64,000 nucleotides of DNA from Octopus vulgaris (taxonomy: Eukaryota): NCBI GenBank assembly GCA_951406725.2, contig OX597824.1, positions 47,430,001 through 47,494,000 of the forward strand, given 5' to 3'. The notes beneath the pieces are model-generated. The model had not been told where the DNA came from. It ran no database searches and saw only the letters and a list, made by a program, of their open reading frames with translations. Each line of letters begins with the position of its first letter. Position 1 is the stretch's first letter. Shown here in pieces: positions 39,671-64,000 of this stretch. Made by a program: the position numbers and the translations under genes.

Positions 39671-39677
39671 ATGGAAG
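39671..39677 (+). CDS. bHLH gene, putative start-codon exon (ATG GAA G)
   Basis: ACAATGG context, AG|GTAAGC donor, phase 1 matches the acceptor at 49440; CpG-containing motifs lie just upstream. Confidence 0.6.
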
Positions 39678-42600
39678 GTAAGCTATTGACTTTGTGGATA
39701 AGTTCTTTTTATTATCATGAGCAACTGCAATAACAAAACTCTCCTTATTTTAATTGCGAACAGAGTTTTTTATAAGGAATATTTTCGAATACAAATAGTT
39801 TTTATTTGATTCCTTAAAGATGAGATTTTTTATAATTACGACTTTCTTTGAAAACCTTAAAGCTGCATTTTGTAATGGTTACGTTGGTTCTACAATTTTA
39901 CTTCAAGATATTTTTTAGTTCAGTCAATGAATTAAAGAAATTTTTTTTATCGTAATCAATTATATGATAATTGGCTCTAATTGTAGAAACCTAGAACATA
40001 TTGTACTAATTCATTTTCTACAAATTTGACAAGCTGTTTTAAAACTTCTTAAGGATAAAAAGTTAATAACAAATGCAAGCAAAATAATTTATGGAGTTCA
40101 AAAACTCCTTTATTTATATACTTCGTCGTCTTTGGAGTTGAAAACATTGAAGAATGGAATACTAAAACGTTTATCACTCAAGTTATTTTCTTCACTGGAA
40201 TTGAAAGAAAAATCAAACTGATGCTTTCCATTATTTAATATATCAGCAAAAGAAAAGGTTTTCATGATTTACTTAAAAATTGCTGAAAACATTAATGAAA
40301 GAATATATGCTAGAAAGCACTCATGACCTAAGATATTTTAATTGGAGAAAGTGAACGAATACCATACTTAGATGCCTTCATTATTTCATGTAGCTATTCT
40401 ACGAAAAATATTTTAATCGTTTTTGTATTTTATTATGTACAAAAATACGTAGTCTTAAGAGAAAGAAGTCAGAAGATGAGGTAAAGGAAATTTTGTATGA
40501 GTGAAGGTCATAGGTCATCACATCATCCCAAATCTCCCTTTCCGAATGTCTTATCTTTGTGCAATATCATCAAAAAATGTTTGTGACTTTCATTGCTTAA
40601 AAAGTAACCCCTTTAATCAACAGATAGCTCCAACATGTAATTTTCTTTCGAAAATAGTCAATGAACAATAATATTATAAACAGCATTATCAAAATGTCTC
40701 CTTTTTGCAATTGGCGCGCTACCAGCCGATTGGACTTCTTGAATTGAGCTCTTTTTATTTTTACGTAATTCATTTTTTATTTGACTGAATTCATCAGTAT
40801 TTCAAATGGACTGAATTCACCAGTATTTCAAAATTTCATAAACGTTTATCTTATTTAATTTTTTAAAAATTATCTTGCAAGGAACTAAAGAAAAATCTTT
40901 TTATTTCAATTCTAATGAAATAATTTTATGTTTATATTACAATATTCATCTCATTCTTATATTTTCATTCAAATAACATTTTTTTTATTAAACTTAGTTT
41001 GTGGATAATAATTACAAATATTTGGTTCTTGAAAGAGGAAAGACAAATGTCTGCTGTGGTTACAAGTCGATTTCTTTATTGCCCGCAGAGGGCTAAACAT
41101 AGAGGCGACGGTTAACTTTCAGTTTTTGACCCGAGCAAAAATATGAAAAAATTAGTGTAATAGGTGTAAAACAACATGTAGTAAAAGAATATGGAAAAAA
41201 AATGTGCGCTGGCGAACCGGGGGTGGAGAGGACTCGGAAAATTCACATCGGGAGTGTTCCGAGTCCTCTCGCCACTTTCCCGTTTGTCGGTGCAATTTTT
41301 TTCTTCATATTCGTTTACTACACATTATTTTACACATATTTCACTATTTTTGGTTAGTGTTTACAACATGACTCGGAAACGAAAATTAGAAAAATCTAGT
41401 GCAATGGGTGTAAAAAAAAATCTGTAGGAAAGATCCGAATTTTCCCCTCATAACTTTTAGGAAAAGGGGGGAGGGTCAATGAAATTTTATAGAAATACCT
41501 TTCAAACTGCATACATTAGGATTAGGAAGAAATTTGTGGGGAAAATCTTTTCCAAGCGGATGGGGAGAGGACTTCGGAAAATTCACAAGATCCAAGTTTT
41601 TCCCTTGTAACTCTTAGGAAAATGTGTTTTTTTGTTTTTGAAATTTTGCTTAAATACCTTTAAACGGCATGCATTACGATTATAAAGTAACTTGTAGGGG
41701 AAATCTTGAGGTGGCGAGAGGACTTTCGGAAAACCCCCAAGATCCAAATTTTTCTTCGTTATATTCCGAAATCAAATTCAACTTTTTACAGATATCCTAG
41801 TGTAGAACTACTATACTACATAGTGTTTATTACTACCCACTTTCAATAATTTTTAATTTTTTGGCTTCAATTTTGTGTCATTTTATCTTCAATTGTTTTT
41901 GCGCATTTTTAACCCTTCCGTCGTACTCATTTTTTTTTTTTTCATGTTCGTTTCCTACGCATTTTTTTACACCCATTGCACTATTTTTTCCTGATTTTCG
42001 TTTCCTGGTTAAGTTGTAAACATTAACCTTTTTTTTTTTTTTCAATTTTTGTGACGGGGTGGGGGTGCAAACTCGGATAATTCACACGGTCCAGTAACCC
42101 AACTTCGACACCCAGCCACCCCCACAAAAAGTGCAATATGTGTAAAATAATTTGTATTAAACGAATATGAAAAAAAATGAACGTGAGGAGGAGGGCTGGG
42201 GAAATTCACACGATCCAATTTTTTCCTCAAGAAAATGGATATTCTTCCCAACCACACAGTTCTGGGTTCAGTACCACTGCATGGCACCTAGGGAAAGTGT
42301 CTTCAACTATAAGCCTGGGATCGATCAATGCATCCTGGAGGCCGAAGGTAGCATTTCAGAGGAAAAAATTATCTATGCTATAAATGAAGATGAAAATAAA
42401 AAATTTGCACACACAATTTCTTCTATTCTGTCTTCTGCAGAATAGTATTAACAGAAACAATTGCAGCGTATATGTTTGTAAGCCATTCAAGAAGACACAT
42501 ATAAAAAAAAAAACTGTTAGTTTCACAGCAACATTTAAATCTCAATATTTTTGTTGCTTTGAAAATGTGACTTGTTCACTGACTAAACAGATGCAGCACG

Positions 42601-45600
42601 AATTTTTGTCAGGGTTTTTTCGTGGCTTCAAAGAACGAAAATATTTAGACACAAATGAAATTTAAATGTTGCAGTGAAACTAACGGTTTTTGTTGTTTGG
42701 GAATTGCTTACAAACATCTTAAACAGTGCAAATTCTTTTAAATATTCATCCTTATCCTGCCACTAATTACAAAACTTTCCACTGTTTTTCATTTTTTTCA
42801 TTTGATTCTCTATATGGACAGATCATGTTATTAAAATAAATTATCTTTAACATTCCTTTAAATTGTTGTGAGAAAAAAAATTTACCAATAGAGAATGATG
42901 TTATAGAAATAATCTATACTCTGTGGATTGTCCATTTCTTGGGTATAAACAACAAGTTCATTTCTTGAGTATGAACAACAAGTTCATTTCTTGGGCATGA
43001 ACAGCAAGTCCGTTTCTTGGGCATGAACAGCAAGTCTGTTTCTTGGGCATGAACAGCAAGTCTGTTTCTTGGGCATGAACAGCAAGTCCGTTTCTTGGGC
43101 ATGAACAGCAAGTCCGTTTCTTGGGCATGAACAGCAAGTCCGTTTCTTGGGCATGAACAGCAAGTCCGTTTCTTGGGCATGAACAGCAAGTCCGTTTCTT
43201 GGGCATGAACAGCAAGTCCGTTTCTTGGGCATGAACAGCAAGTCCGTTTCTTGGGCATGAACAGCAAGTCCGTTTCTTGGGCATGAACAGCAAGTCCGTT
43301 TCTTGGGCATGAACAGCAAGTCCGTTTCTTGGGCATGAACAGCAAGTCCGTTTCTTGGGCATGAACAACAAGTCCGTTTCTTGGGCATGAACAACAAGTT
43401 CATGGGTATAAACAACACATCCTCATATATATTTTCCTTTTCTCAGTATTTTTCTCCCATTAAACATTGAAGTGCCATCCATTGGTGGAATATAAGTAAT
43501 AATAAAACAGAAACCATGGGAATAGAATTGAGTCTGTAATGAATTTTCCAAAGCCCCTGTGTACGTTTTATATTCTTGTGAGCCATCTACCTGCACTTTA
43601 GCTCTATAAACAATTCTTTTTTCATGACATTTACCTTCCAACGGACAAGTCTTATCTTTGTAGTTGCACTTTCTCAGATTAGATTCGGCACTGTAGTTGT
43701 TTGTAATAATTTTTGTGTATACTGGTTAATAAAAGAGGCGAAGTTTTTGCAAAAAGGGTAGATAACATTCGGTGTTCTCCTATTAAATATTCTATAGAAA
43801 TTATGGCTACATTGAAAAGTCTTTTGTTTTGTCAGAGTTTATGAAGGTCTTATCCAAGTTCTTTATGTCTCTAATTTTTTCCTTCATATCTCTCTGGAGT
43901 TGGTTGTTGAATTTGCAGAATTTAATTTTTCTAATAAGCCCAAAAAGGTCTTTTTCAAAGGCTTCCAATTCCGAAACAGATGGTGGGTTTTTGGAAGATT
44001 TAAGTCCGTATTTGTTTCCATTAGATTTCTGCTTTGTATCAAAGAAGAAGGCTTTCCATCTCATTCTTTAAATAAACTCCTCCGTTTACCTCTGGTATTC
44101 GAGTGCTATTTTTTCCACCTTGTTTTGCATTTATGTGCTTAATTTGGTGTAACCCGATCCTTTTTTAGAAAGTTTGAGCGACTCTCCACAAGTAGGAAGA
44201 AACAGCTGAAATAAATGGAACTTTACCCATTGGATTTTTCTGTAAAAAATACACCCATCACAGCACAGAAGCAATACCTCAAGAAACTTATTGAAAAAAA
44301 TGGAAGAGTTTATTTGATAAATGATATGGAAAGCGTTCTTTTTGATTCAAAGCAGAAATCTAATGGAAGCAAATATGGACTTAAATCTTCCAAAAATCCA
44401 CCACCTATTTCAGATTTCAAAAAATCTGGTTCAAAGGGATTAGACATAAGCATAACTGCAAATTTATGCAGTTTGATATTGTCAATTTTTACCCATCAAT
44501 ATCTAGGCCTTTGCTTCTAAAAGCATTCAGAAATAGTATGCAAAGAAATCTAAAAGCATTCAGAAATAGTATGCAAAGAAATCCCTTCTTTTTTATGATG
44601 ATTCCACCTGGGTCAAAAAGAGTGAGGATTCTCATTTCAATGTACCAATGGGGGCATATGATGGGGCAGAGTTGTGTATGCTTATAGGAACTTATATTTT
44701 GCATAATCTGCATCTAGAATTCCCTTTATAAATGCAGGATTATACAGGGATGACAGTCTTATAGTCACCCATGATTTAAATAACCTTAGGAAGAATTTGA
44801 TTACTTTCTTCCAAAGAATGGGCTTATGGCTTACAATAGAAAGTAACCTTAATAACGTAGATTTTTTAGATATCAACTTAGATTTGCTATTAGATAAATT
44901 TAAATCCTACTGTAAGCCCAATGAAAAGCTATGTTATATTAGCAAAGAATCTAATCATCCATCCGTAATTCTTAAGAACCTAGTTAGCAATGTAGGAAGG
45001 TGAATATCATCTACTTCTTCAGATGAGACAGCATTTCAAAATGCCATGCCATATTACAATAATGCATTAACCCTTTTGATACTAACCCGGCTGTAGCCAG
45101 CTGAAAAATGTCAACGGATAAAATGCTGTATGGGTAAAATGTTTTGACACTCGGAAAACTTTGACTGTCACATTTGAATTTGATTTTACACGTTATAGTT
45201 ACTTTGCTTTACAATGCTAGTGCATATTTTGACTTCACATTTAAGAAAGCCTTCGACTGTTTTACAAATTTAAGCTGAAGCTTCGCCGAGGTTTATTTTT
45301 ATTATTTACTCAAGCATTTAATTATGTTATATCAAATTATTGTGCAATTTCCTTATTTTAACATTTTAAGATTATATGCACCAGACGGTCTTTCTTTAAA
45401 TTGTTTATGCATATAGATAGATATAACTATAGGGGTATCAAATTATTGGATCAGGTGATGAAAGTTACAGAGAGGGTTATAGCTCAACTAATTAGGGAGG
45501 GAATTAGCCTAGATGAGATGCAGTTTGGTTTTGTGTCAGGCAGAAGCATTATTGATGTTATATTTCTGGTAAGGCAACTGCAGGAGAAATATCTAGCCAA

Positions 45601-48600
45601 AGATAAACCTCTGTACTTTGTTGACTTGGAGAAAGTCTTTGACAGGGTCCCTCAATCCCTTATCTAGTGGTCAGTGTGAAAACTGGGGATAGACAAGTGA
45701 TTGGTAAGAGCTGTACAAGCCCTGTACATGGATGCCATCAGTAAGGTGAGGGTTGGCAATGAGTATAGTGAAGAATTCTGAGTAGAAGTAGGAGTTCACC
45801 AAGGATCAGTCCTCAGCCCTCTCTTATTCATTATAGTCCTCCAGGCAATAACAGGAATTCAAGACAGGCTGCCCCTAGGAGCTCCTCTATGCTGATGACC
45901 TTGCCCTAATAGCCAAGTCACTGCCAGAACTAGAGACGAAGTTTAGGGTGTGGAAGTGAGGTTTGGAATCGAAGGGCCTTAGGGTGAACCTAGCAAAAAC
46001 CAAAGTCTTAGTAAGTAGGAAAGCTGTCAAACCACAATCCCCTTCAGGTAGATGGCCCTACTCGATCTATAGGAAAGTGGAATACACACAAACTAGTACA
46101 TAAATACAAATATTTATGTATTTATATACTATTTTGTGTGTATTCCACTGATGAGGCAAAGCCTTTCTTATGCAAAGCCAGAAATCTGGGATCTGGATTT
46201 ATCCAATAATTTTTTGCTAGTTTATCTCTTTGTCTTCTCTCCTGGTGCTGTATGAACATTTAATGTGGTTTTAGAGTCAAGTTTTGGCTGCTATATCTAG
46301 CATGGTGGTATCTTTTAGATACCCCCGTTTGTGTTCAGATTGTCCTTGCTCAGGGGCCATCCGTACTCCTATTTGTGCTGTAAACAGGGATAATCTCTCT
46401 TCACTCCTTTGCGCCACATGGGCTCAACTTTCCTCCCTCCCCTTCACACCTGCTTCCTCCCACCCACCCACCTCTCTTCTCTTCACTCCTACTCACCTTC
46501 CCCTTCATTGTAACCCCTCCCCCATAACCCCACCCCTATACATTCCAACTCCATCTTCCCTGTCCTTCCCATCCCTTACTCCCCCTCCCACATACCTCAC
46601 CTCTGCCTACCCACATACCCCATCTCTACCCCCACCCTCAGCCTAACCCACACCCCACCCTTGCTTTCCCCTTTCTTGTTTCTCCCACCTCCCAACACCA
46701 TCACACCACTACACCATACACCACCATATACAACACATCACACCACGATGCACACACTAGCACTGACCACTTCCCAACCTCACATTTACACATACACACA
46801 CGCACATGTCAAGGTCACTAGCCCTCTTCCACATGCACATACTACTCTCTTATACACATGGATGCACACCTTCGTTTTGGGATCACTACTACTTTATTAT
46901 CTCCCCTTCTTCCTAGCTCTCCTGTGTGACCCTTCTGTTCAGCATTCGCCATGATAGATCGCTAGCCACTACACCTTCTTTATTTTCTCTCCTTGTTTCT
47001 TTCTGTGTTCCTTTCTGTGGAAGAGCGTAGGCTCGAAACGTTAAAGACATTTTCGCTTTCTAAGTGAAAGTTGGTTCCATAATTTGGTTTTAACTCTTGG
47101 AGCAGATATTTCACTACAATTATCCTTTATCTATCTTTGATAAAGGCATAAGCTTTACAGCTTCTTAGTATATTTTGTGTGGTAAATGCTAAGCTCTTTT
47201 TACTCTTTGTAGAAAGTATGACTGAGTAATGTTTTATGCTATTCAAATATCAGTCTCTCTCTATCATCCACTCTTGGATGGGATTAAAGGTAAGGTGTCT
47301 TGCCTGTCCATGACTTTCATCTGGCACTTTGAGAGAGTCTTCTTCGCCATGCCAAATTGTAATACATGAAATACCACACCAAATTGCAAATACATGAAGC
47401 ATATACATGAAATATATGTGGTTGATAATGCTTATTACACTAGTGCTGCAGTGTTTGGGCTTACCCACACAGCACGCTACTGGCAATATGATTCGTCTCT
47501 GATCCTGTTTGAGTATGTGATGTTGATAAGCCACAAAAATGGTGAAATATCAATGTCCATCACTCCTGGATGGGATTAGAGGTAAGTTATCTCATGTAAA
47601 TTTTCAGGTGTTTTAACATACACCACTTTGAGAGAGCATTCTCCACCATACCAAATCACAAACTACTGGCAAATACATGAAGCTTATATATTGAGTATAT
47701 GTCATTGATAATGTTTATTATACAAGCCCTACTTCTATTTCATATCTGAAGTTAGAATCTTCTAAAGACAGTCATTATTTTCAGCATTCCAGAAGTCAGT
47801 GATTTGCTGCCAGGAATTTTGTATACATTCTCCAGACATTCATTCTGCGGCAAAATTATCTGTTAATGCAAATATACAGTAGAAGTTGCTTATTACAATT
47901 ATGGTTAATATTGTGAGAAAGTTATTAGCAAAATTAGTGAGTTGAGTCCTAAAAGCAGTGTCAACTGGATATTGTTATCTAAAAGGCTGTCCAGAGTGAT
48001 CACAATAAGTTACTTTCATTGTATTTTAGTATACTTAATTTTGAAAAAAAACTTTGTACTGACTTTGACAATTTTGGAGTATAATATGCTGCTTTCAACT
48101 TTGCAAACTTTAGTTTTCAGTTCAGTTTCCCAAATTTTTACTTCTTTCAGTTTTACTCATGAATGATATCTATAGTTAATAGGTTAGCAATAAGAATTTC
48201 AAAATAAAGACTGTTATAGCAATAGTAATTTTAAGTTTAATTTCACTATCCAATTCATGGTATCCATTGCTTTCTTAACCCTTTCTTCTTTGATGTTAGA
48301 ATAACATGTTCCAAGTGAACTCTAAGTGCCAGTTTGAGAAGACCTTTAGTCTTCTTGAAGACATGACAATCTCTCCAGCCCTGGTGTCACACATAAAAAA
48401 AAGCACACTGTATACTGTAAAGTAGTTGGTGTTAGGAAGGGCATCCAGCCATAGAAGTTACGTCAAAACTGAGACTCACACGAGCGATGTCCTCTCATAC
48501 ACGTAAGAGCAGTAACAATCTGTCCAGTTCATGCCTGTATAAAAAATGAATGTATAATGATAATGGAAACGTTCATGTAATGAACTTTTGACCAATGCTC

Positions 48601-51600
48601 AACCACAACTAGGCTTATCATGTGTATTTACACCAAATCAAAGTCCTTTTAGTTTATGGGTCAACAAATTCCTGAAATTAATAAAGAATTGTTGATAGAA
48701 ACTAATGGTCCTCGACAAACGAAAATCAAGATGTAGGGGGAAATATCAGCAAAAGTAAATGCCAAGGAATTACTAATGGAAAGTTGCCAGTGAAAATGGC
48801 AGTTTGTAGTCCAAGAATACCCTGGCTTTATATATTATGTCATCAAAGTAACACTGGTAAACAAATTAGCACACATCCTTGTGGGAGGTAAAAGCATTTT
48901 CTGTAAAGTCAACAACTTTATCTTTACATCATCACAACTAATGGAGTTAAACAAATTCTGTTGAGAATTCAAGAAATTTGAAACTGCAGTAACAGTACCT
49001 GCACTGTACTGCAGAAAACTTGGAATATATATCTCTGAGTTTCAATCTACAACAAGACTAACAAATATTTTTAATTATCACTATGGTCATGTTACGCCTA
49101 CTTTCCATGCTAGTATTGGTTGGACAAGTCATTATTGTTCGAGTCAGTTCTTATTTGGAGTCACTATCCCCTAGATAGCTTAGAGAACCACTTTTGTTTG
49201 TACTTTTCCAGTTCAACCGTATTACTGAGTGTACTCTGGGAGAGTACCTTGTGATCTGTGAGACTGAGTCCTTAGTCCTGTGTCTCAAGGCAACATAACC
49301 AGTTGGGTCAATAGCAGAAAAATATACTTTAATTGTTTTATGAGCCATTTTTTACTCCCTTTAAATTTAACTTCATTATTTTCATACTAATTTGTATATT
49401 ATGTCAAGCTCTTATAATTGTAAATGTTTCTCATTTCAGATATTAGTTTTTCCTCAGTTTCATTTCAGTGCCTTGATGAATTTAAAGCTAAACCGCATCT
49501 CATTCATGAAGACCAAAAGGTTCCAGAATATATCAGTGAGATCCATGTAAATAGTTCTAGCAGCATTGAAGAACAAGACATAATTATTGACTCTAAGAAA
49601 CAGAGGTTTAATGGTATTTCTAACAATCAATTGAGGCACTTTAAAAAGAATGTCTTCAAAAAGGTAAAATAATTCCTTGATTTAGAATGTGTTCAATTAT
49701 TGTATAACTATATATATTAGGTCATCCCATAAATAATGTGTTTTTTAATTTTTTAAAATTTTTATCTAGTTTCAACTCACAAGCTGTGGCCATGCTGGGG
49801 CACCGCCATTATGCTTGTTTTATATTTCAGAATTAAGATAAAATTCTTTTTGAATCTAAAATATACTCTCCTTCATTTTCTACAATGCACTTCCATCTAA
49901 CTGGTAGACTTGTAAGGCCCCTCTTCCAAAATCACTTGTCCATGATGAAAAATACTCCTCCAGTACTGTTCTAACCTTGTCTACAGAATTCATATTTTTA
50001 CTGTCCAAATGATTTTGAAGACTGAGGAATAAATGATAATCAGATGGAGCAATGTTCTGCGAATATGGTGGGTAGTGCATCGTTTCCCATTCAAACTGTT
50101 CCAGCCTTTCGAATGTCATCCTCGTTCCATGTGGCTGAGCATTATCCTGATGGAAGAACACCTTTTGTCTTGAAACCAAAGATGGTCGTTTTTCTTCCAC
50201 CCCTGATTTGAATGACTGGTTGAATGACCAAATCCAAGCTTCTCTGCTAGTTTCTCAACAGTTACAATGGGATTTTGTTTCACCAGGGTTTGCCGGACGT
50301 CCTCATCGAGCTCTATAGACCTTCCAGGAAGACGCTCATCTTCTAGGCTATATTTCCTGCTTGGAATTTCTGGAACTACTATTGACACTGGCTTACACTT
50401 ATTGTCTAATTCCCACATACTGCATTAATATTCCTTGTACTTTCTGTTGTGTTGTTGTTGTCTTTATTGAACTCATAAAGCAAAATATGCTGAAACTGTT
50501 AAAATGAACTGCACTCTTCAAAAATTGCACTAAGAATAAGGACGGGATAAAATTAGTACCTGTTTTTAAAGCAATATGATGCAGGTAGTTTATCCCATTC
50601 CCCTCTGACTTTTAGTTCATGCAATTGAAAAAAACCGCATTATTTATGAGATGACCCTATATATATATACATACATGAGTGATAATACTTTGAAAAGAAA
50701 AGAGTTTAATATTAAATTTTGTATACATTTATATGTGTGTGAAATTGATAAAATAAATATTATTTACAATAAGTTTAGTTTCATTTTGATTAAAATATTA
50801 ATGACTTTAGAGCAAAGCATCTCATTACAGCTTACCTGCATTTAGCATCTCTTACTGGTTCATTGCAAGTCAACTCTGGGTACACCTATGATAAAAAAAA
50901 TTTCAGTTGTGACTATCCTATTTTTTTCCCATAAGTAGGAAACCCAAGGCCATGTTATTCAATATGTCCATTTTCTTTATCTTAAGATGGTAATATGTGT
51001 GTGTGAATTTAGCTGTTATTTTTAGCATGTTAAGTGACCATGTAGAGGCTCTCCTCATTGATTTGTTTAGTGTGAAAAGAATTGGTGTATTTATTTCATT
51101 GAAAAAATAATTGTAGTAAATTAGAATTAAATTATTTTGAATTAGAAATGTAAAAACTTCTAACAAACTAATTGCTATTTATATAAAGAATTTTATATAT
51201 TTTATATTCAAAATGCTTTTCAGTCTTCTAAAAAGCGAAGACCCCGTGGAAATTACCCACTCCTTGAGTCTCCTGTTGTGCTACGTGCACATTCAAATTA
51301 TGTCCAATATCAGTATTCAAAACAAAGACAACAAGCACAAAAACCTTCGCAGAAACTGATGCAAAAGCACAGAGAAAATGAAAGGTATTTTTATTTAAAA
51401 ATTTTTTTTTAATATTTAGTTTGCTTTTATTTTAACATAACAATGATATTTACTATTAGAAAAAATAATATTTAAATGAAACCACAAGAAAAAGGAAAGA
51501 AGAAATAGAAAAAAAGAATTAGCTATGAAATTCTCACATTCTTTCGATTTCTTATAATTCAGACTGCCTTGTGGATCCAACAGACAAAATGGGAAAGGTG

Positions 51601-54600
51601 TTGCCCCGGAGGATGGTGAGGGAGATTTGCTGGAACAGTCACTTTGACTCATGGGGTCTCACACTTGCAAATAGCCATCTCTGCCCTGATAGTGGTGAGT
51701 AAGGATATGGTCCAGGGGCTGAGAACACTGGAAGTCTCCATTGCCTCAGGCTTGACCATAAACAGTTGAGAGTAGTCATTTTAATCTATCTCTGTATATA
51801 TTCTATAGTACAATATAGATTTAATGGGGAAAAGACTGTTAGTACACCAGTTATTTTTTAATTGAACTAGCTATCAATAATGTTATATAAACAAACCAGT
51901 GTTTCTGATTTACTCAGCCCTAAGTAATAGTGGATTTATAAGTAGTGTCTCTGTAGTCAAGTTAAAGATGTATTTAGTTGCTGATGAAGTCTCAACAGGG
52001 GAGTGAAACTAGACTGGCTAACACCTCTTCCTGTCTATGAAAATACTGTATATAAAACAAATGGCTGAAATCTATAAAGATATTCAGTTGTACAATGTAA
52101 CATTGAAACAAAAACTCTCATAATGTAACAATAATTTATTACCTTGTAATGTTGAAAATTTAAATAAATTCTATTTCTTTTTATTGCTTTTTATTTTTAT
52201 TTTTCTCCTCTCTCTCTCTCTGTCTTTCTAGAGTTCGTCACCGTACTTTAAATGAATTAATGAATAAATTGTATAAACAAATCCCTGGATATTCAGAATA
52301 TTCTAAAGGAACTAAGGTTTTGAATATGAATTTTTTTTGTCTTTTTTCTTGTTTTATATTCACAAATTTAAAAATAATACACATGACTGTAGTTAAGAAG
52401 TTCACTTCTCAATCATGTAGTTTCTGGTTCTCTTCCCTTGTGTGGAACTTTGAGCAAGTTTCTTCTACTATACCACCTGACTGACCAAAGTGTTGTGAAT
52501 AAATTTGGTAGATGGAAACTGAAAGAAGCATGTTGTACATGTGTATGTGTATCTCCTTGACTTGATATTGCGTGGTAGTTGTTACTTGTCTTATGGGAAA
52601 GCATGCTTAGCCATGGGATAGTACTACCTTACTTGGAAATAAGTGTGGGTTGGAGACAAGATAGGCATCTGATTGTAGAAAATCCACCTCAATAGATTCT
52701 CTCTGACCAATTCAATAGGAAAAGTGGACGTTAAAATGATAATGATGGTGATAACTCATAATTTCTTTCTAGAGCGGCTTTATAGGAGTCATCATTGTGT
52801 AATGTCCACCTTCCATGCTAGCATGGGTGGGATGGTTTCACAAAAGCCGGCCAGGCAGAACCCTGCACCAGACTTCTGTGACTGTTTTGGCAGGATTTTT
52901 ACAGCTAGATGCCCTTCCTAACACCAACCACTCAGAGAGCCAGGATCAATCGGTTCATATAAATTATGCAATTCATGCATGTTTTGTGCTTCCAGTAGAA
53001 AGGACTATTATTATTATTATTATTATTATTATCAAGAGAACCATCCGAACATGGCCGTTGCCAGCGCTGCCCTGACTGGTCTCTGTGCAGGTGGCACGTA
53101 AAAAGCACCATCCGATCGTGGCCGTTTGCCAGCCTTGTCTGGTACCTGTGCAGGTGGCACGTAAAAAGCACCCACTACACTCATGGAGTGGTTGGCGTTA
53201 GGAAGGGCATCCAGCCGTAGAAACATTGCCAGATCAGACTGGGCCTGGTGCAGCCTTCTGGCTTCCCAGACCCCAGTTGAACCGTCCAACCCATGCTAGC
53301 ATGGAAAGCGGACGCTAAACGAAGATGATGATAATAAGCACAGGTGAGGTCAGTTTTGGTAAGGTTTTTACAGCTGAATACCAATCAATTTACAGTGTAG
53401 ACTGGGTGCTTTTAAGTAGCACCTGCACTGACAGGGTCACCAAGTACTTGCAAGATAAGACAAAGAAGAAAAAAACTTTCAAGAGAGGAGGGGGCATTAG
53501 ATGAGGTGATCTTGTGTCGGATGATGAATGGTTATAGTGAGAGAAAGAGACAGAAACTGGTGTCTTGCTGTAGAGGAAGTACAAGGTTACTCAGCCAGAG
53601 AGAGATTGTGTTCAGGAATGAAGACAGAAACAGGTGTGCTACTGCAAAGGAAATACATGGTTACCCAACCTGAGGGAAATACATGAGAAGGAGAGAGTGG
53701 AAGACAGCAGGATAGAGATGGTGACAAAATTCCAGACATACTCACATGGGACGGGGATCAAAATATAAATGGGATGGTTGAGTATAGGAAGAGAGAGAGA
53801 TATAGATGGTGGCAAGTGCCAGGACATGCCCTTGAGGTTTGAATGTCATAATGTAAGGGCAGGATATTGCAAGGAAGCGTGATTAAAAAGTGTAGAGGTG
53901 GGGCAAAAACTTGGGTATATATAGAGTTGGATGGGTGGGTGAGCTACCAAATAGCAATGATACAGAGGAACAGGGCCGTGAGGACAGGATTGGGGAGTGA
54001 GAGCAAGGCATAGTGTATGAAGGAGGAAATGTGAGGAAGAGAAGAGATGTGGATATGTAGATTGGGTTGTTGAGGTAGGGTGAGTGAAAAGGTTTCTTGT
54101 TATGTGTGGGTGAAACATACAGGTCGGGGGATAGCAGATAGCAATAATGCAGTGAGACGGCATGTGGGTGGAACACACAGGTCAGGGGCAAACTGAGAGC
54201 AATGATACAGTGACACAGGGCCAAGAGGACAGGATTGGGGAGTGGGCAGGAAGCATAGTGCATGAAGCAGAAATGTGAATAAGAGAAGAGATGTAGTTTG
54301 GTTTATTGTGGTAGTGTGTGTGAGAAGTTTTCTTATTAAGTGTGGGTGGGACACAGTGCTTCTAGAACTCAGTTTCACTGACATGAGTGAGTCTTCTCAA
54401 GAACTTCATATCGCCAGACATCTTGGTCCATTGTCATTTCCTCTGTGAGGCCCAACATCCTGAGATCAGTCCTTACCACTTCATCCCACATCTTCCTGGG
54501 TTGCCTTCTTCTGCAGGTACCATCCACTTTCAGTGATTGGCATTTCTTTATGCAGCTGTCTTCATTCATACGCATCACATGTCCAAACCAACAAAGTCTT

Positions 54601-57600
54601 CTCTCTTGCATGCTACATTTGATTCCTCTTATGCCCAATTTTTCTCTCAATACATTTGCACTTTGCCATACATATGCACTGATGTTTCACATCCAATGGA
54701 GCATACTACCTTCATTTCTCTCCAGTCTACACATTCAGAGCTCATGTCACACTACTATGGAGTATAGCCATTCACACACAAACATCCTTTCACTTTAAGT
54801 GAGAGTCCTTTTGTTGCCAGCAGAGTTAATAGCTCTCTGAACTTCCCAATTCTTTTTCTAGAAATAATACTTTCAGAGCATCCTCCACCATTGCTAATTT
54901 GGTCACCTAGGTAACAGAAACTAGCTACAACCTCCTGAGCATTTGAGAGAATCAAAGTCCCGTGTGCTCTTAGTAGTTATTGTTCCTGCACATCTGCCAC
55001 ATACAAAGACAACTTTATTTGTTAATCTACCTGTGATTCCACTGCACCCCTTATGTGTCCATAGTTTACACTGGGTGCAGCAAATGGAATTTCTTCCAAC
55101 TCCTTTCTTATGTATTGAGCAGGGTCATTTATTTGACGGAAAGAGAGTTTTATCTTCTTTCTTACTAACAACAACTTTGATCTTAGCTAGGTTAACTTTA
55201 AGGCCCTTTGATTCCAGGTTTTGTTTCCATACCTGGAATTTCTTCTCCAATACTGCTAAAGATTCTTCAATAAGAGCAAGGTCATCAGCATATAGCAGTT
55301 CCCATGGGCACCTAGTTTTGAATTCCTCTGTTATGGTCTGGAGGACTATAATGAGTGGGCTGAGAACTGAGCCTTGGTGAACCCCTACACTAAATTCATC
55401 ACTATTCATGGATGACTCTCACATTACTGACAGCACCACTGTACATGGCTTGTACAGCTCTAACAAGCCACTCCTCTACTCCTAACTTCCTTAGACACCA
55501 CCATATAACAGAGCAGGGGAACTCTGTCAAAAGCTTTCTCCAGGTCGACAAAAGCTAAGTACAACAGCTTACTTTTGGCCTAGTACTTTTCCTGCAGCTG
55601 TCTCACTAGGAAGATGACATCTGTGGTACTCTTCCCAGGTACAAAGCCAAACTGCATCTCATCTAGTTTAATTTATTTCTAATCAATTGAGCTATAAACC
55701 TCTCAGTAACTTTTATGACTTGGTCTAGCAATTTAATACCTCTGTAGTTGTTTCTATCTAAGGCATCATCTTCTTTACCCAGTCATTGCGGATGGTGCCT
55801 TCCTGAATAACCTGATTAACTATATGGGTGACTAAGCTGTATCCTACACTACTGGAAATTTTAATCATCTCGGCAGTGATTCCTGATGGCCCAGAGGCAT
55901 TCCTTGTCTTCATGTCCTTAATTGCCTTATCTATTATGCTGCTATCAATTGGCTGGTCCCTTAATTGGTTCGATATTTGGTAGACTCTCTCCGATGGATA
56001 TATTATTTACTCTTTTTTTTAACATCCTTTATTCCCTTGAATGGATGTGGTGGCTTTTTTACTGAAGTAATTCTTTTTACACCTGGATGCCTTTCCTGCC
56101 ACTCAATCAGGAAGCACAAATGGTATAAGATTTATGGCATTGCTTAAACCAGTGTTTTGCAACTTTTTTTGTTATACATTGCAGTCATGTTATATAAATG
56201 GCATGTAAAAAGCACCCATTACACTCTTGGAGCAGTTGGCATTACGAAAGACATCCAGCTGTAGAAGCCATACCAAATCAGGCTGGAACCTGGTGCAGCT
56301 CCCCGGCTTAACAGTTCCAGTCAAACCGTCTAACCCATGCCAGTGTGGAAAGTGGACACTTGATGATCCAAAACACTTGGATACTTACAATGTTCCCCAA
56401 CTTTTATACCCTTATGTAATACATGTAGTGACTGTAATTAAATTTAAAGTTAATAGGGTTGCTCTTGAATACAAAGACCCTCCCGGGTGAAGAATGTATC
56501 CCTCAGCATAGACTAATCATCAGTGACTTTAAGCTTGAGGCCAGAAGGACTCCAAGAAACAAACCAATCCAGAAAAGAAGGATTTGGAGGCTAAAGAACC
56601 CTTCACATGGTCAGAAATTTAGGGACATACTCATCAAGAAATTTGATGAGAGGGAGGAGGAGCTTCAGACGTCAGACATAGAAGGTAGCTGGGAATTCCT
56701 ACGGGACAGCTTGCTGAGTGCCACAGACCGAGTCTGTGGATGGTGCAAAGTCCCTTCCAGACCTAGAATTACGTGGTGGTGGAATAGTGCAGTAGATAAA
56801 GCCATCTGTAAAAAGAGACGGGCCTGGAAAGCCTGGAAGGATGGGGGCAGCAGGGAACTGTACCAGATAGCCAAAAGGGAGGCTGGGCGGCAGGTATACA
56901 TAGCCCAAGACGTAGCAGAAAAGAAGAAGTTTGCCAATGTCCAGCGACGCGAGGATCAAAGAGCTGAAGTATTTCGGATTACCAGACAGTGTGTCAGAGA
57001 AAATAGTGATGTTATAGGAGAGAAATGTGTCCGCATGGATGATGGGGCACTTGCTTTTACTGCTAGTGAAAAGAAAGAGACTTGGAGAAGCCATTATGAA
57101 AGACTGCTGAATGAGGAGAATGAATGGGAGGAGGAGAGCCTGCCAAATGTTGACCCAGTAGAGGGACCAGCTACCCGAATAGACAGCTCCCTTGTAGATA
57201 AGGCAATTAAGGATATGAAACCAGGCAAAGCCCCTGGCCTATCAGGAATCACTGCTGAGATGCTTAAAACAGCTGGCTATGTGGGCTATACCATAGTCAC
57301 CCGCATTGTAAACCAGGTAGTTCACAATGGAGTCATACCCAATGACTGGTGCAGCAGCACCATAGTCAACTGCTACAAGGGTAAGGGTGATGCTCTAGAT
57401 AGAAATAACTACAGAGGTATCAAACTGTTGGACCAGGTGATGAAGGTCTCAGAGAAGGTCATAACTCATCTCATTAGGGAGAGAATTTGTTTAGATGAAA
57501 TGCAGTTCGGTTTTGTACCAGGTAGAAGCACCACTGATGCTATATTCTTGGTCCGACAACTGCAGGAGAAGTACCTAGCTAAAGATAAACCCCTCTACAT

Positions 57601-60600
57601 AGCTTTTGTAGACTTGGAGAAAGCCTTTGACAGGGTTCCCCGTTCCCTCATCTGGTGGTCGATGCGGAAACTGGAGATTGAAGAATGGCTAATAAGGGCT
57701 GTACAGGCTCTATACAGAGAGGCTGTCAGCAAGGTTAGGATTGGCAACGAATATAGTGAAGAATTCCGGGTAGAAGTAGGTGTGCACCAGGGCTCAGCCC
57801 TCAGTCCCCTTTTATTCATCATAGTCCTTCAGGCAATAACAGAGGAATTCAAAACGGGATGCCCCTGGGAGCTCCTCTATGCCGATGACCTAGCTCTCAT
57901 AGCAGAATCACTACCGGAACTAGAAGAGAAATTTCGGGTGTGGAAGCAAGGGTTGGAATCAAAGGGCCTTAGAATAAATGTAGCAAAGACCAAAGTATTA
58001 GTAAGCAGCAAGAGGTACTCAGCACACACCCCCTCGGGTAGGTGGCCCTGCTCAATCTGTAGGAAAGGTACAGGTAGAAACTCCATAAGATGCACCCAAT
58101 GTAAGTTATGGACACATAAGAGGTGCAGCAACATTAAAGGGAAATTAACAGATAAGATAGCTTTCATGTGCGGCAGATGCACAGGGACAATAGACACAAC
58201 AGACACTCAGAAAACAGATTCCATCACACTCCAGGGAGAGAAACTAGAAGTAGTTGATAGTTTCCGCTACCTGGGTGACCAAGTTAGTAGCGGAGGTGGA
58301 TGCACAGAGAGTATCACCACTAGAATACGAATAGCCTGGGCAAAGTTCAGAAAGCTCCTATCCCTACTGGCAACAAAAGGTCTCTCCCTCAGAGCGAAAG
58401 GTAGATTGTATGATGCATGTGTGCGAACTGCCATGCTTCACGGTAATGAAACATGGGCAGTGACTGCAGAGGACATGCGTAGACTTGAAAGAAATGAAGC
58501 TAGCATGATCCGCTGGATGTGTAGTGTCAGTGTACACGCAAGACAGAGTGTAAGCATCCTAAGAGAAATGCTGGATATAAGAAACATCAGATGTGGTGTG
58601 CAAGAGCGACGCTTGCGATGGTATGGTCATGTGCTGCGGATGGATGAAGAGAGATGTGTGAAGAAGTGCCACTCCCAAACAGTTGAAGGTATCAGGGGGA
58701 GAGGTAGACCCAGGAAGACATGGGATGAGGTAGTCAAGCATGACCTCAGAGCATTGGGCCTCACTGAGGCAATGGCGAAAGACCGAGATCTCTGGAGATA
58801 TGCTGTGACTGCAAAGACCCGGGCTGCTTTCTGCAGCAATTCCACATACCCCCTACCCATTCAAAGTACCCCGGACCCAGTTGCCCCCGTGCTGCTGGCA
58901 CGTTAAAAGCTCGAACCGATCGTGACCAATGCCGGACCCCCCGGCCCCTGTGCAGGTGGCACGTAAAAAGCACCCAATCCACTCACGGAGTGGTTGGCGT
59001 TAGGAAGGGCATCCAGCCGTAGAAACTCTGCCAAATCAGACTGGAGCCTGGAGCGGCCCCTGGCTTCCCAGACCCCGGTCGAACTGTCCAACCCGTGCTA
59101 GCGCGGAAAACGGACGTTAAACGATGATGATGATGATGATGTATTGTTCACCATTCCTTTAGAAGAATGAGTGCTACTTGTAGGAACCACTTGTGAGCAG
59201 ATTTAGGAACACAATAGCTATTGTATGATATGAACACACAACCATGTAATCACTAGCGTTGTATCTTAATCTCATAGTCATTGTCCTTTTAAAATATTTT
59301 ACATTTTATAACCATGCTGAACAAACATTTTCCATTTATGATATTGAATTGATTTTAGGTAGTGACGATGCAACGTGCCATTTGTTATATTGTATACCTG
59401 GAGAAGATGATCAACCAAGTTTGCAAAGAGCTTAGAGTAACAGTGGACTTATCCAAAATGTTCCTAACTGTCAGACTCAGCAGAGAAGGTATTTATTTGT
59501 TTGTATGTAACTCTGACTCTGTATAGCTCCTTACATGTCTCTTGCTTTTCTTATATCTACACAGAAATTAGATACATTATTGTTTCTTGTATGTAGTATT
59601 TTGCAAATACTGTTCTAATCAACATAATTGTACAATTGCAGATATAAGAAGAGCCTTGTGGGGTTATGATACATACGAACAGTGGAAGAATGAATGTTCA
59701 TCAACTTGTGATTTGGTAATATTTTAAATTTCTTGAAACAATGTTTTCTTGCATTAGCATGGCATCACATATTTATAGAAGAAGGTCATTATTGCTTAAA
59801 AATGTAGCACTTATTTTATTGATCCTGAGGATGAATTGCAAAGTCAACCACCAGAAATCGATCAGTCATTTAGTCTAGAACTCTGTGCTGTTTCTGCCAC
59901 TCCAATGAGTTTGTGTCACCTGACTGGCACTCGTGCTGGTGGCACACAATAAGCACAATTCATGTGTCGATCAATGCCAGTGTTGCTTGACTGGCTCCTC
60001 ATGCTCGTGGTACGTAAAAAAAGTACCAACTGAACATGGTTGATGCCAGCCCCCCCCCCCCCCCCCCGACTAGCTTCAGTGCTGGTGGCACATAAAAAGC
60101 ACCATCCAAATGTGGCCAATGCCAGTACTGCCCAGCTGGCTCCTGTGGAGTGAATTTGGAAGGCAGAAACTGAAAGAAGCCTGTCATATATTTATATATA
60201 CATGTGTAGAACTAGAAGTAGTTGATAGCTTCCACTATCTAGGTGACCAAGTTAGTAGTGGGGATGGATGCTCTGAGAGTGTTACCACTAGAATAAGAAT
60301 AGCCTGGGCAAAGTTTAGAAAGCTTCTATCCCTACTGGTGACAAAGGGCCTCTCGCTCAGAGTGAAAGGTAGATTGTACGATACATGTGTGCGAACTGCC
60401 ATGCTTCACAGCAGTGAAACATGGGCTGTGACTGTGGAGGACACGTGTAGGCTTGAAAGAAACGAAGCTAGCACGATCCGCTGGATGTGTAATGTTAGTG
60501 TGCACACACGACAGAGTGTAAACGCCCTGAGAGAAATATTGGACATAAGAAGCATTGGATATGGCGTGCAAGAGAGACGTTTGCGCTGGTATGGTCATGT

Positions 60601-63600
60601 ACTACAGATGGATGTGAAGAAGTGCCACTCCCAAACAGTTGAAGGAATCCAGGGTAGCTGTAGACCCAGGAACACATGGGATGAGGTGGTCAAGCATGAC
60701 TTTCAAACATTGGGCCTCACAGAGGCAATGCCGAAAGACTAAGACCTCTGAAGATATGCTGTGACTGTGAAGACCCGGCAAATAAAGAGAGTTCACGGCT
60801 GTATCCTACACCAGTTTTGCATAAACAGCCCCAGCCCATTCAAAAATCCCTTGGATCCTAGGGCGACCTGCTGTGCTTGAGACCTATTGAGTCAAGTACA
60901 TCAACATCAAAATGAAAATCAAATGGAAATTGTAGTTGTGATACCCATGCTGGCCGATGCCAGCGCCGCCTTGATTGGCTTCCATGCCAGTGGCACATAA
61001 AAAGCAGCAACTGATCATGGCCGTTTCCAGCCTCCTTTGGCCCCTATGCCAGTGGCACAAAAAGCACCCACTACACTCACGGAGTGGTTGGTGTTAGGAA
61101 GGGCATCCAGCTGTAGAAACACTGCCAGATCAGATTGGTGCCTGGTGCAGCCTCCTGGCTTCCCAGACCCCAGTCGAACCATCCAACTCATGCTAGCATG
61201 GAAAACGGACGTTAAACAATGATGATGTGTGTGTGTTTGTCTCCTTCCACTGCTTGACAACTGCTGTTGGTTTATTTATGTCTCTGTAACAGTGGTTCAG
61301 CAAAGACACTAATAGAATAAGTACCAGGATCTAAAAATTAAAAAGTATTGGTGTCAATTCATTTGAATAAAAATTCTTCAAGGCAGTGCCCCAGCATGGT
61401 CGCAGTCTAATAACTGAAACAAATAAAAGATCAATGAAGTAGAATTATAAATGAAATAAAATATATCAAGTAATTGTTGAATGAGAGTATGAAAAATATA
61501 TTTAGCTTTTGTTTAACAGAGCTACTTCACTATTCCAAGCCAGTAAGGAACATTTTTTTTTCTCCTGCAGTTATTTCAAATCTTGTGTTGAGATGATAAG
61601 AATTGCATAGTAGTATATTTGTAGATATCCAGGATAACATTGAGAATTCAAAATGATGTGTACATATTTGCATCTTGCAGTCATAAGAAAGAAGTTATGA
61701 GCGGTTGTTGAATTAAGAGTGGCTATGTAGTTTAGAAGTTCATTTTACAATCATATGACTGACTCCATTGTGTGGAACCTTAGGGTTGTTTCTTATGCTA
61801 TACCCATGGGTCAACCAAATCTTCTGGGGTAAAATTTGGTTGATGAAGTCTGTTGGATATATAGATATATATATATGTGTATAACCATGGAGGATGCCAA
61901 AATCAGTAGAATGTCAGACTAAACACCTTGTGCTATTTGGTTACGTCCCACCAAGTTAAATAAAATAACCACCAAAGTACTGAAGTTGATAAACAGTACA
62001 CAGCACAGCCACAGTGCATTGATTGAAACTAGTAAAGAGCAATGTTATAAAAAAGATTAAGGAAGGTTATTGGTCTTTCAAAGTTAGTTGCTAACATACT
62101 GATTGCATCAGATTGGAGTGGCTTAGTTTATTAAATTGAACAATTAAGCATGAAGAGTAATTAACTCTTCACCTGTCATAACTGGGAATTACGGGTATTT
62201 TTTCTCATTGCTGGATAGATGTTTCTAAAATTATATATTGTATATTTTGATGCAATAATTCTTATATATCTTATAATCAGATTATGGGAAAATGGGTTTT
62301 AAACTGAAGATATATTCATTGTAGTGCATCTCAGCACTGTATGCAATAAGCTTGTTATATAATTTAGAAGGCAGTGTGCTGGCAGAATCTTTAGCAATCC
62401 AGACAAAATGTTTAGCAGCATTTCTTCTGGCTTTATGTTCTGAGTTCAAATTCTGTTGAGGTCCACTTTGCCTTTCATTCTTTTGGGGGCTATAAAATAG
62501 GTTCCAGCCTTGTGCCTTTAGTCAAAAGACTTATATAATTCAGTTTCAAAATGCAAGAGGCTAAATATGTAATAAACAATATTTTATGTTTTGTTTTAAC
62601 TTAAACTAAAATAACATTTTTAAAACAAAATTATTATATCAGTGATAGTATATGATGGTTATATCAGTGGTAACACATAATGGAAGGAAAACCTGTATTG
62701 AAGTTTAAAAATTCACTGTTAGTTCAGATTTAACAAAATTTAAAAGTTTATTGAAGGAACTAGCAAATGCACCTGTCCTTTGGATATTTTAAGTTGCTTT
62801 GTTGGTATTTTATTCACCAAATAATTGAACTACCGAGAAGGTTTATGATTAACCTAGGAACGGAAAATCAAATTGAAGGCTGGTTATTGTGGAGGTTGTT
62901 GCACTTAAATGATCATAGAACATATAAGTTTGCAAGCAATGCAAAGTAGAGCTACTGAAGTGTTTTGGGAGTAGATTATGGATGTGGACTACAAAATATA
63001 GTTGTTTTTTAAGCATATTTTGTTCACTCTTATTTTCATATATAACTTAAACATGTACATCTTTTTGAACATTGTCAGTTTATAAGATTTTGCTGGCAAA
63101 TTTTTTAATTAATATTTATTTACATGAAAGAAAATTACCGGAGACATAACGCATGTTATGTTATAGTTGCAAGTAGGCAGTCAAAAGAAATAATTGGACA
63201 AAATCCTTTCACTTTTATAAAAGGTATAGAAGACCCTACATACAAAAAAACTATGTCTATTTACATAGGAGCTCTGTGCAAAATATTATAGTGCACAACC
63301 ATCCTTGGGGCATAAGTAATGCATGTGTAAAGTTTGGTGAAAATCAGTTGAGAATTGTAGAAATGTATGTGTTAGTTATTATACACACACATACTGCCAT
63401 TTATATAGACTGGATGATAAATCAGTTATTTTTGATAGAACACATATGGTAAACTAATAAATAATGGGAGAATATCAGTGTCTTTTAAAGTTGTGTTCTT
63501 GTTACTGTTTTCTTAGTTTTCAATATTTTTAATGGTGAGCTGGCAGAATTGTTAGCACGCCGGGCAAAATGCTTAGCAGCATTTTGTCTGCTGTTACGTT

Positions 63601-63973
63601 CTGAGTTCAAATTCTGCTAAGGTCAACTTTGCTTTTCATCCTTTTGGGATCAATTAAATAAGTACCAGTTACACACTAGTGGTCAATGTAATCGACTGAA
63701 AAACCCTTTGACTATCCTTGTTTGTCCCCTCTATGTTTAGCCCCTTGTGAGTATTAAAGAAATGAATATTTTAAACTAATATTTTAATAGGATATTTTCT
63801 ATATTGTTTCAAGGCTTCAGATATAGAAAGTACTTCAAACAACGCCATGAAACCTTGTTCCACAGTAATAGACACAGAAGGGAACCAATTTTCTCCAGAT
63901 TTCAACTTCACCTGTGAAACTGATAATGACAATACATTAAATATTTTCCTTCCCAATGATGGATTGATTGTAG
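39671..63973 (+). CDS. bHLH-domain protein, multi-exon and 3'-incomplete. Exons: 39671-39677, 49440-49663, 51224-51384, 52232-52316, 59359-59488, probably 63821-63973
   Basis: Phase-consistent splicing gives ...QKLMQKHRENER|VRHRTLNELMNKLYKQIPGYSEYSKGTK|VVTMQRAICYIVYLEKMINQVCKEL... This fits basic region (H-x3-E-R-x-R), helix 1 (LN..L...IP), loop and helix 2 (K...(M/L)..AI.YI..L). Confidence 0.85.
41110..42235. repeat. Foldback-like composite repeat: nested inverted repeats plus ~155-bp tandem units
   Basis: 14-bp perfect stem 41226-41239/41257-41270; inverted arms 41355-41430 vs 41950-42025; units start at 41431, 41588, 41740. Confidence 0.75.
42941..43416. repeat. 26-bp minisatellite, about 18 copies (GGGCATGAACAGCAAGTCCGTTTCTT)
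   Basis: Period 26 read directly (units start at 43071, 43097 ... 43201); no spacers. Confidence 0.98.
43423..44140 (-). mobile_element. Penelope-like element relic (Naiad-like): N-terminus joined by deletion to linker and GIY-YIG endonuclease
   Basis: RMRWKAFFF..KYGLKS..P...ELEAFEKDL..SDKT, then HNFYRIFNR and CNY...CPLEGKC...IVYRAKV...KTYTG. Confidence 0.8.
44215..45068 (+). mobile_element. Penelope-like element relic: N-terminus and RT core
   Basis: QFDIVNFYPSI, VPMGAYDGAELC, GLYRDD, VDFLDINLDL, YCKPN...YISKESNHP are PLE RT motifs. Confidence 0.88.
45415..46075 (+). mobile_element. RTE RT fragment, decayed
   Basis: YRGIKLLDQVMKV...DLEKVFDRV...YADD with stops. Confidence 0.92.
46144..46197 (+). 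ncRNA. Minimal type I hammerhead-ribozyme-like motif
   Basis: TCCA-CTGATGA-GGC...GCC-A-GAAA-TC-TGG-GA-TC-TGGA. Stems I, II and III can pair; AUC triplet. Confidence 0.55.
46320..47060 (+). mobile_element. Second Penelope-like 3' end/pLTR relic with C-rich tract and hammerhead-like motif
   Basis: SLHSFAPHGLN matches the L.TL.P.GLN end of PLE GIY-YIG domains; a hammerhead-like motif follows at 47011. Confidence 0.55.
47011..47046 (+). ncRNA. Minimal hammerhead-like motif with variant core
   Basis: CTTT-CTGTGGA-A-GAGC-GTAG-GCTC-GAAA-CG-TT-AAAG; palindromic ACGT stem III. Confidence 0.5.
47262..47730. repeat. Diverged direct duplication, period about 298 bp
   Basis: CACTC.TGGATGGGATTA.AGGTAAG...CACTTTGAGAGAG...CAAATACATGAAGC.TATA...TTGATAATG.TTATTA occurs twice. 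Confidence 0.8.
49440..49663 (+). CDS. bHLH gene exon 2
   Basis: TTTCAG acceptor; open frame DISFSSVSFQCLDEF...RHFKKNVFKK; AAG|GTAAAA donor, phase 0. Confidence 0.75.
49717..50660 (-). mobile_element. mariner (DD34D-type) transposon, internally deleted
   Basis: TIR GGTCATCCCATAAATAATG / CATTATTTATGAGATGACC; HQDNAQPH, PPYSQNIAPSDYHLF. Confidence 0.92.
51224..51384 (+). CDS. bHLH gene exon 3 (NLS-like KKRRPR; start of basic region)
   Basis: SSKKRRPRGNYPLLESPVVLRAHSNYVQYQYSKQRQQAQKPSQKLMQKHRENE(R); phase 0-2. Confidence 0.85.
51974..52021 (+). ncRNA. Decayed hammerhead-like motif
   Basis: TTAGTTG-CTGATGA-...-GAAA-CTAG-AC-TGGCTAA. Stem I pairs; the conserved U before the cleavage site is A. 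Confidence 0.4.
52232..52316 (+). CDS. bHLH gene exon 4 (helix 1 and loop)
   Basis: Long pyrimidine tract plus TAG acceptor; VRHRTLNELMNKLYKQIPGYSEYSKGTK; phase 2-0. Confidence 0.88.
52790..55960 (-). mobile_element. Older RTE subfamily copy (RT, PHD, long 3' UTR), interrupted by a plus-strand RTE tail at ~53030-53335
   Basis: ORFs 55125-55409, 54755-54955 and 54375-54650 are RTE-like but diverged. The minus-strand tail is at ~52790-52935. Confidence 0.88.
56459..59140 (+). mobile_element. RTE-clade LINE, 5'-truncated and relatively young, with an uninterrupted 815-aa frame (end of APE endonuclease, RT, PHD finger, C-terminal region), 3' UTR and (GAT)n tail
   Basis: QHRLIISD, WWWN, YRGIKLL, QFGFVPGRSTTDAIF, AFVDLEKAFDRV, GVHQGSALSPLLF, LLYADDL, FRYLG, RRLRWYGHVLRM, RGRGRPRKTW. 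Confidence 0.97.
59359..59488 (+). CDS. bHLH gene exon 5 (helix 2)
   Basis: VVTMQRAICYIVYLEKMINQVCKELRVTVDLSKMFLTVRLSRE; TTTTAG acceptor, G|GTATTT donor, phase 0-1. Confidence 0.88.
59915..61227 (+). mobile_element. RTE repeat-unit fragment plus RTE C-terminal/3' UTR copy
   Basis: ORF 60110-60742 matches the C-terminal part of the 815-aa ORF; the tail ends at ~61227. Confidence 0.92.
63533..63765 (+). mobile_element. SINE family C copy
   Basis: Collinear with 16700-16925. Confidence 0.85.
63821..63973 (+). CDS. bHLH gene, candidate exon 6
   Basis: TTCAG acceptor; 153 nt open in phase 1-1 (DIESTSNNAMKPCSTVIDTEGNQFSPDFNFTCETDNDNTLNIFLPNDGLIV); TAG|GTACC donor. Confidence 0.6.
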
Positions 63974-64000
63974 GTACCTATACATTTAGTATTGTGACTC

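Follow-up and report, generated by a model that had tools for sequence, protein, structure and literature searches.

The stretch of DNA considered here is 64,000 nucleotides of the Octopus vulgaris genome (assembly GCA_951406725.2, contig OX597824.1, positions 47,430,001 to 47,494,000 of the forward strand), hereafter the window, numbered from its first letter. It carries on its forward strand the beginning of a real, spliced octopus gene, whose product has two DNA-binding domains, one basic helix-loop-helix (bHLH) domain and one high-mobility group (HMG) box. Judged by sequence match, this gene is a member of a published family, LtcHLH, and it is likely to be the mollusc ortholog of MEIOSIN, by which vertebrates set meiosis going. 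Its protein, P0002, is a 601-residue Octopus sequence, and the exons within the window, all on the forward strand, follow from that protein and from contigs of three sequencing runs (X1, X4 and X5), whose RNA nature is our guess:

39671..39677, + strand: exon 1, 7 nucleotides with the ATG, a GT donor and a fitting phase; P0002 start; outside the contig-aligned stretch
49440..49663, + strand: exon 2, N-terminal and predicted disordered; P0002 residues 3-77 (X1 contig 1, X5 contig 15)
51224..51384, + strand: exon 3, holding a basic cluster and the first part (H5 to E9) of the bHLH's basic region; X1 contig and P0002 match
52232..52316, + strand: exon 4, R12, H13, helix 1 and loop; P0002 residues 131-159; 83-nucleotide gap in two spliced contigs
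59359..59488, + strand: exon 5, helix 2 of the bHLH with an extension conserved in the family; contigs and P0002 match
59642..59715, + strand: exon 6, 74 nucleotides, restores the frame; P0002 residues 203-227; 75-nucleotide gap in X1 contig 1
63814..64000, + strand: exon 7, start of the predicted disordered long linker, continuing off the window; contigs of X1, X4 and X5

The original prediction had placed at this locus a bHLH domain split over three exons (51224-51384, 52232-52316 and 59359-59488), and the split is real. The three exons are bounded by AG and GT, and their phases agree (2, then 0): of the two introns between them, the first falls within the R10 codon in phase 2 and the second at the start of helix 2 in phase 0. 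Joining the exons reproduces the bHLH peptide first quoted for the locus, in which the hyphens are alignment gaps. Contig 1 of X1 (955 nucleotides, 0 mismatches) aligns to 49438-49661, 51222-51384, 59357-59486 and 63813-64000. Between its second and third pieces lies a gap of 83 nucleotides, which equals the 85-nucleotide exon minus a 2-nucleotide AG overlap, exon 52232-52316 being placed in the contigs by this gap arithmetic rather than by an alignment row of its own; a further gap of 75 nucleotides fits the 74-nucleotide exon 59642-59715 when shared edge letters are counted. The same 83-nucleotide gap recurs in contig 16 of X5, which comes from a different study and organism label and differs by 5-6 letters per exon. 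The predicted junctions 51384/52232 and 52316/59359 are thus both supported, spliced contigs of two studies joining the exons exactly, and since the contigs skip GT-AG introns they are spliced. Joined together, the seven exons encode 289 stop-free residues that equal residues 1-289 of P0002 except at one position. The predicted exon set stood for the three bHLH exons and lacked the 74-nucleotide exon needed to keep the frame. The predicted span of 39671..63973 is plausible at its start, where the ATG exon fits the beginning of P0002, and failed at its end: an exon end or donor at 63973 is rejected, as P0002 and contigs of X1, X4 and X5 read on past 64000, leaving the HMG-box half of the gene outside the window.

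Pfam places an HLH domain at residues 124-173 of P0002 and an HMG_box at residues 507-564; the latter is encoded beyond the window, in keeping with the earlier suggestion that an HMG box be sought in downstream exons. Taken singly, 0 of 3 exons matched Pfam. An AlphaFold model of P0002 has confident helices only within or adjoining the two domains, and its predicted local distance difference test score (pLDDT) is below 50 for 372 of the 601 residues. When the full model was run through Foldseek, no structure matched with an E value of 0.001 or lower, the weaker rows being HMG boxes first and then E47/NeuroD1 and OmoMYC. Exon 5 as a query recovered three proteins, namely P0002 itself, an Octopus bimaculoides protein (97% identical) and an Argonauta protein already labelled 'basic helix-loop-helix and HMG box domain-containing 1-1'; a word search with P0002 residues 76-232 returned these three cephalopod proteins only, and the bHLH part reached only generic HLH clusters in the ESM Atlas (0.75-0.77). 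A full-library search and a named search extended the architecture to bivalves, gastropods, Lingula, Owenia and echinoderms. As the profile for the named search included a MEIOSIN sequence, its MEIOSIN matches are circular and were used for names only; independent tests of MEIOSIN kinship came from a family-profile scan, two trees and a MEIOSIN-only profile.

Membership of LtcHLH was judged by sequence match: the published members match P0004, P0008, P0088 and their relatives, which are the top bHLH-bearing matches of P0002. The family was named in 2017 by Bao et al. (PMC5381572), who left it unclassified, described it as 'lophotrochozoan only', found it linked to Cranky in some genomes and proposed from that linkage that it may be a Cranky duplicate. 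Members from oyster, limpet, Biomphalaria and Capitella in their supplement share with the octopus protein a basic region ending in R12-H13 and helix 2, and the oyster sequence is nearly identical to P0004, the third-best match of P0002 after two cephalopod proteins; the supplement rows examined include no cephalopod member, and the term 'HMG' occurs 0 times in the main text of PMC5381572. The expectation that the gene would fit no classical bHLH family proved right; the alternative of an orphan gives way to LtcHLH membership and to an argonaut ortholog already named as bHLH-HMG. Pearl and Amber were candidates until the same supplement placed the family in LtcHLH. The basic region and HMG box also occur together in echinoderms, so the type is not lophotrochozoan-only. 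In databases the mollusc members P0152, P0159, P0008 and P0017 are named 'Sex-determining region Y protein' or 'Sox-17-alpha-like', and work on how sex is determined in bivalves may be misled by such names; Sox/SRY membership is not borne out by a 77-row tree, in which the HMG box falls outside the Sox-type group.

It is the HMG box that ties the family to MEIOSIN. In that tree (77 rows, 66 alignment columns, LG+G4), whose outgroups were drawn at random, 18 from the 36 Sox-like boxes and 25 from the 74 other HMG boxes, all unnamed matches to the octopus query classed by motif, the family and vertebrate MEIOSIN are joined with support of 97/87. A mixture-model tree of 59 of the 77 rows, with 18 long or redundant rows left out, joins them at 97/86, and FastTree support for the grouping is 0.947. 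On a profile built only from vertebrate MEIOSIN HMG boxes, the highest-scoring of 111 other boxes reaches 38.9 bits and is outscored by 34 of 35 family boxes, the octopus box among them at 52.9 bits; a profile-profile comparison of the HMG box gives E 3e-15. A helix-1 motif, chosen post hoc from the alignment, is found in 35/35 family, 8/8 echinoderm-group and 90/90 MEIOSIN boxes and in 0/111 others. As a lead only, newt MEIOSIN as an ESM Atlas query retrieved a 57-member mollusc cluster of HMG+HLH proteins at 0.89, above two STRA8 clusters (0.75-0.76). Like MEIOSIN/BHMG1, the octopus protein has an N-terminal bHLH, a long linker and a C-terminal HMG box at a similar length; unlike it, vertebrate MEIOSIN has a basic region without H5-E9-R12 when the helix-1 proline is taken as the anchor, as judged on 25 rows of the 73 that matched among 89. 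MEIOSIN, one of several leads first offered for this gene, is the one favoured by two HMG trees and the MEIOSIN-only profile, and we consider it highly probable that the two-domain gene is shared with MEIOSIN by common descent.

A bHLH-HMG group in echinoderms (P0071, P0085, P0108, P0166 and P0239 by name; P0073, P0079 and P0112 placed by likeness) has the same architecture, H5-E9-R12-H13 in 8/8 and a profile match probability of 99%, although its HMG box is much more diverged, at 10-25 bits on the MEIOSIN profile. The group is sister to the family plus MEIOSIN in the 77-row tree (95/87) and is not starred in the mixture-model tree; it may represent a fast ortholog or a second paralog. The HMG box of one family member, P0021 (892 residues), is sister to MEIOSIN in the 77-row tree (93/82), but not in the mixture-model tree.

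CACGTG-binding bHLH proteins of group B follow the rule H5-E9-R13, where E9 and R12 permit E-box binding and R13 picks the central CG. P0002 keeps H5, E9 and R12 (H126, E130 and R133) with His at position 13 (H134; codon CAC, 52239-52241), exactly as originally predicted. His13 is present in 43/43 alignable invertebrate relatives (44 examined) and H5 in 42, in an alignment whose pattern pre-fixed E9, R/K10, R12 and positions 16-17 and left only positions 5 and 13 free. Since every alignable relative carries it, His13 is a conserved family trait in molluscs, a brachiopod, annelids and echinoderms, and not decay. The group B rule does not hold here: position 13 departs from H5-E9-R13 in all 43, and the solved bHLH closest to the family bHLH profile is NeuroD1 of group A (E 1.5e-4), with USF and Myc at E 0.4-6, so that 'group B with R13H' is one reading only. 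A shift in E-box preference caused by His13 is plausible from the residues concerned. In alignment, the octopus HMG box shares with SRY an Asn at a position that is Ser in HMGB1, and this Asn marks sequence-specific HMG boxes.

Several results weigh against orthology with MEIOSIN. Approximately unbiased (AU) tests on the 66 columns allow MEIOSIN to sit with Sox-type boxes (p 0.33), nearly reject a placement of the family with Sox (p 0.051, at a cost of 31 log units when forced) and leave the inner order of the family, the echinoderm group and MEIOSIN undecided (p 0.40, 0.43). A family-only HMG profile scores MEIOSIN at 48.6-56.7 and Sox-type boxes at up to 62. The bHLH domain gives an hhalign probability of 32% (E 5e-4) against that of MEIOSIN, and with a profile of MEIOSIN bHLH domains the octopus one reaches 7.1 bits, both comparisons being made with no other bHLH families as control. 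The AU tests and this weak bHLH match leave standing an independent fusion, in which lophotrochozoans would have joined a bHLH of their own, either from a group A gene or from a Cranky duplicate that had diverged, to an HMG box like those of Sox, and in which the resemblance to MEIOSIN would be convergent; NeuroD1 as the best solved bHLH, Sox proteins as the best solved single HMG boxes for the octopus box and the reported linkage to Cranky (PMC5381572) would all suit such an origin. We nonetheless judge it improbable, given that two starred HMG trees join the family and MEIOSIN, that profile ranking is reciprocal, that the helix-1 motif separates MEIOSIN from the other boxes and that echinoderms share both the basic region and the HMG box. 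Closer kinship with STRA8 than with MEIOSIN, a possibility raised in the original prediction, is more doubtful still and in our view very improbable. STRA8 does resemble the octopus protein in combining a bHLH with a predicted HMG-like domain (PMC6392498), but Pfam clearly recognises an HMG_box in the octopus protein, which nests with MEIOSIN in two trees (both built without STRA8 rows), and Pfam bHLH_STRA8 (PF23175) was matched by 0 of 11 proteins, P0002 and 10 relatives including newt MEIOSIN, with E up to 10 requested and HMMER filters discarding most matches above about E 0.1, a comparison made through the Pfam model only, with no STRA8 sequence.

Expression of the oyster ortholog also runs counter to a germline-only role. 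In bulk tissue from nine oyster organs, with one value per organ (PMC5381572, Table S10), CgLtcHLH stands at 27.4 fragments per kilobase of transcript per million mapped reads (FPKM) in haemocytes, 5.1 in male gonad, 4.8 and 4.7 in mantle, 2.5 in gill, 2.4 in female gonad, 2.1 in palp, 1.9 in digestive gland and 1.5 in muscle; it ranges over 1.0-5.8 FPKM across 38 developmental stages in the same table, and the authors describe LtcHLH as expressed in various tissues and stages. SOHLH1 and SOHLH2 are gonad-enriched there (27 and 77), and the oyster data can therefore reveal germline factors. The suggestion that the octopus gene encodes a germline factor is thus unsupported by its oyster ortholog, which peaks in haemocytes and is broadly expressed, unlike germ-cell-specific MEIOSIN. 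A MEIOSIN ortholog that in molluscs is mainly a broad somatic regulator, for instance in blood cells, with germline restriction and the meiotic job arising in the vertebrate line, would account for this pattern and for an invertebrate basic region that is intact, unlike that of MEIOSIN. We regard this as somewhat unlikely: MEIOSIN is expressed as a short pulse in few cells (PMC13637641), which a single bulk gonad value would dilute, and male gonad is the second-highest organ in the oyster table.

We return to the gene as a MEIOSIN ortholog with a meiotic role. A bHLH homodimer was predicted with a score of 0.58 against 0.01 for the best control, with a partner pLDDT of at least 67 and runs sharing at least 75% of contacts; this mark was passed by 21/30 microbial homodimers and 0/23 monomers and, among eukaryotes, by 17/29 homodimers (animals 7/16) and 0/30 monomers. 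Since bHLH dimers have been solved, this result may stem from resemblance to them, and it may be compatible with a heterodimer too. In the prediction, the intact invertebrate bHLH pairs with itself as a four-helix homodimer, using the customary faces of helix 1 and helix 2. Such a dimer would grip the major groove through H5, E9, R12 and H13, the exchange of Arg13 for His shifting preference at the central E-box bases, while the HMG boxes would bind and bend nearby DNA from the minor groove. The simplest model would be a dimer that needs no partner, holding the major groove by its bHLH and bending DNA with its two HMG boxes, and that was later reduced in vertebrates, where MEIOSIN would have lost its own basic residues and come to depend on STRA8 as its bHLH partner. 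In the mouse, the MEIOSIN bHLH binds STRA8 and MEIOSIN without its bHLH keeps partial activity (PMC13637641); STRA8-bound promoters bear CNCCTCAG rather than an E-box (PMC6392498). Target genes would be switched on, likely including those of meiotic entry, a role drawn solely from orthology to MEIOSIN, and likely not in germ cells alone. Taken whole, as a mollusc MEIOSIN ortholog that self-pairs, binds DNA and activates genes that likely include those for meiotic entry and likely not only in germ cells, this account stands in our estimate evenly balanced between being right and wrong.

The rest of the window holds one other host gene that we saw and a variety of repeats. An open frame at 4440-4742 (-), on the strand opposite the bHLH-HMG gene, contains one exon of a gene for mitochondrial translation initiation factor IF-2, with E 8e-11 for its best match among solved structures. 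The human genes MTIF2 (2p16), NPAS4/Cranky (11q13) and MEIOSIN (19q13) are found in regions paralogous to one another, which may hint at synteny. The intron separating the bHLH loop from helix 2 contains a long interspersed nuclear element (LINE) at 56438-58906 (+), an open frame of 822 codons that encodes a PHD-like finger as well as a reverse transcriptase and that we take to be RTE-type; further fragments lie at 401-1426, 45362-45667, 54375-55418 and 60074-60742. In the first intron is a minisatellite (42930-43399) of 18 copies of a 26-nucleotide unit, 97% alike. Tc1/mariner transposase-like remnants occur at 22085-22507 (-), 8417-8713 (-) and 49880-50254 (-), the first with a weak DDE_3 match in the domain scan and the last with none.

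What was known beforehand is the family name and a BHMG1 label on one ortholog; the octopus member and the proposed LtcHLH-MEIOSIN link, both from sequence comparison, would be new. In the open literature 'LtcHLH' was confined to PMC5381572, 'meiosin' and 'oyster' were found together nowhere, and no link of LtcHLH or a mollusc gene to MEIOSIN was found, although subscription papers may mention invertebrate homologs. A 2026 study of MEIOSIN evolution, limited to vertebrates and leaving distant species unexamined, proposes an HMG-containing core to which bHLH-STRA8 pairing was a derived addition (PMC13637641), and according to a preprint sea anemones have Meiosin (10.1101/2025.09.17.676462). Orthology of LtcHLH, if correct, would date the union of bHLH and HMG box to the mollusc-vertebrate ancestor or earlier, the invertebrate bHLH would look like a DNA-binding domain rather than a mere docking site, and neither 'lophotrochozoan-only' nor 'Sex-determining region Y protein' would remain a correct label. 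For the start of meiosis outside vertebrates, the family supplies a candidate known by name that can be put to the test in oysters, limpets, annelids and sea urchins. LtcHLH could even be the surviving ancestral MEIOSIN-STRA8 switch, a single bHLH-HMG gene of the mollusc-vertebrate ancestor whose homodimer started meiosis and whose His13 read a non-standard site, later split into a degenerate-basic MEIOSIN and STRA8, with the divergent echinoderm group perhaps marking that duplication. We think this scenario rather unlikely; were it true, a transcriptional trigger of meiosis common to animals would be of ancient origin. A caution from the oyster data is that vertebrates may instead have specialised the gene for meiosis, an outcome that would be informative in its own right.

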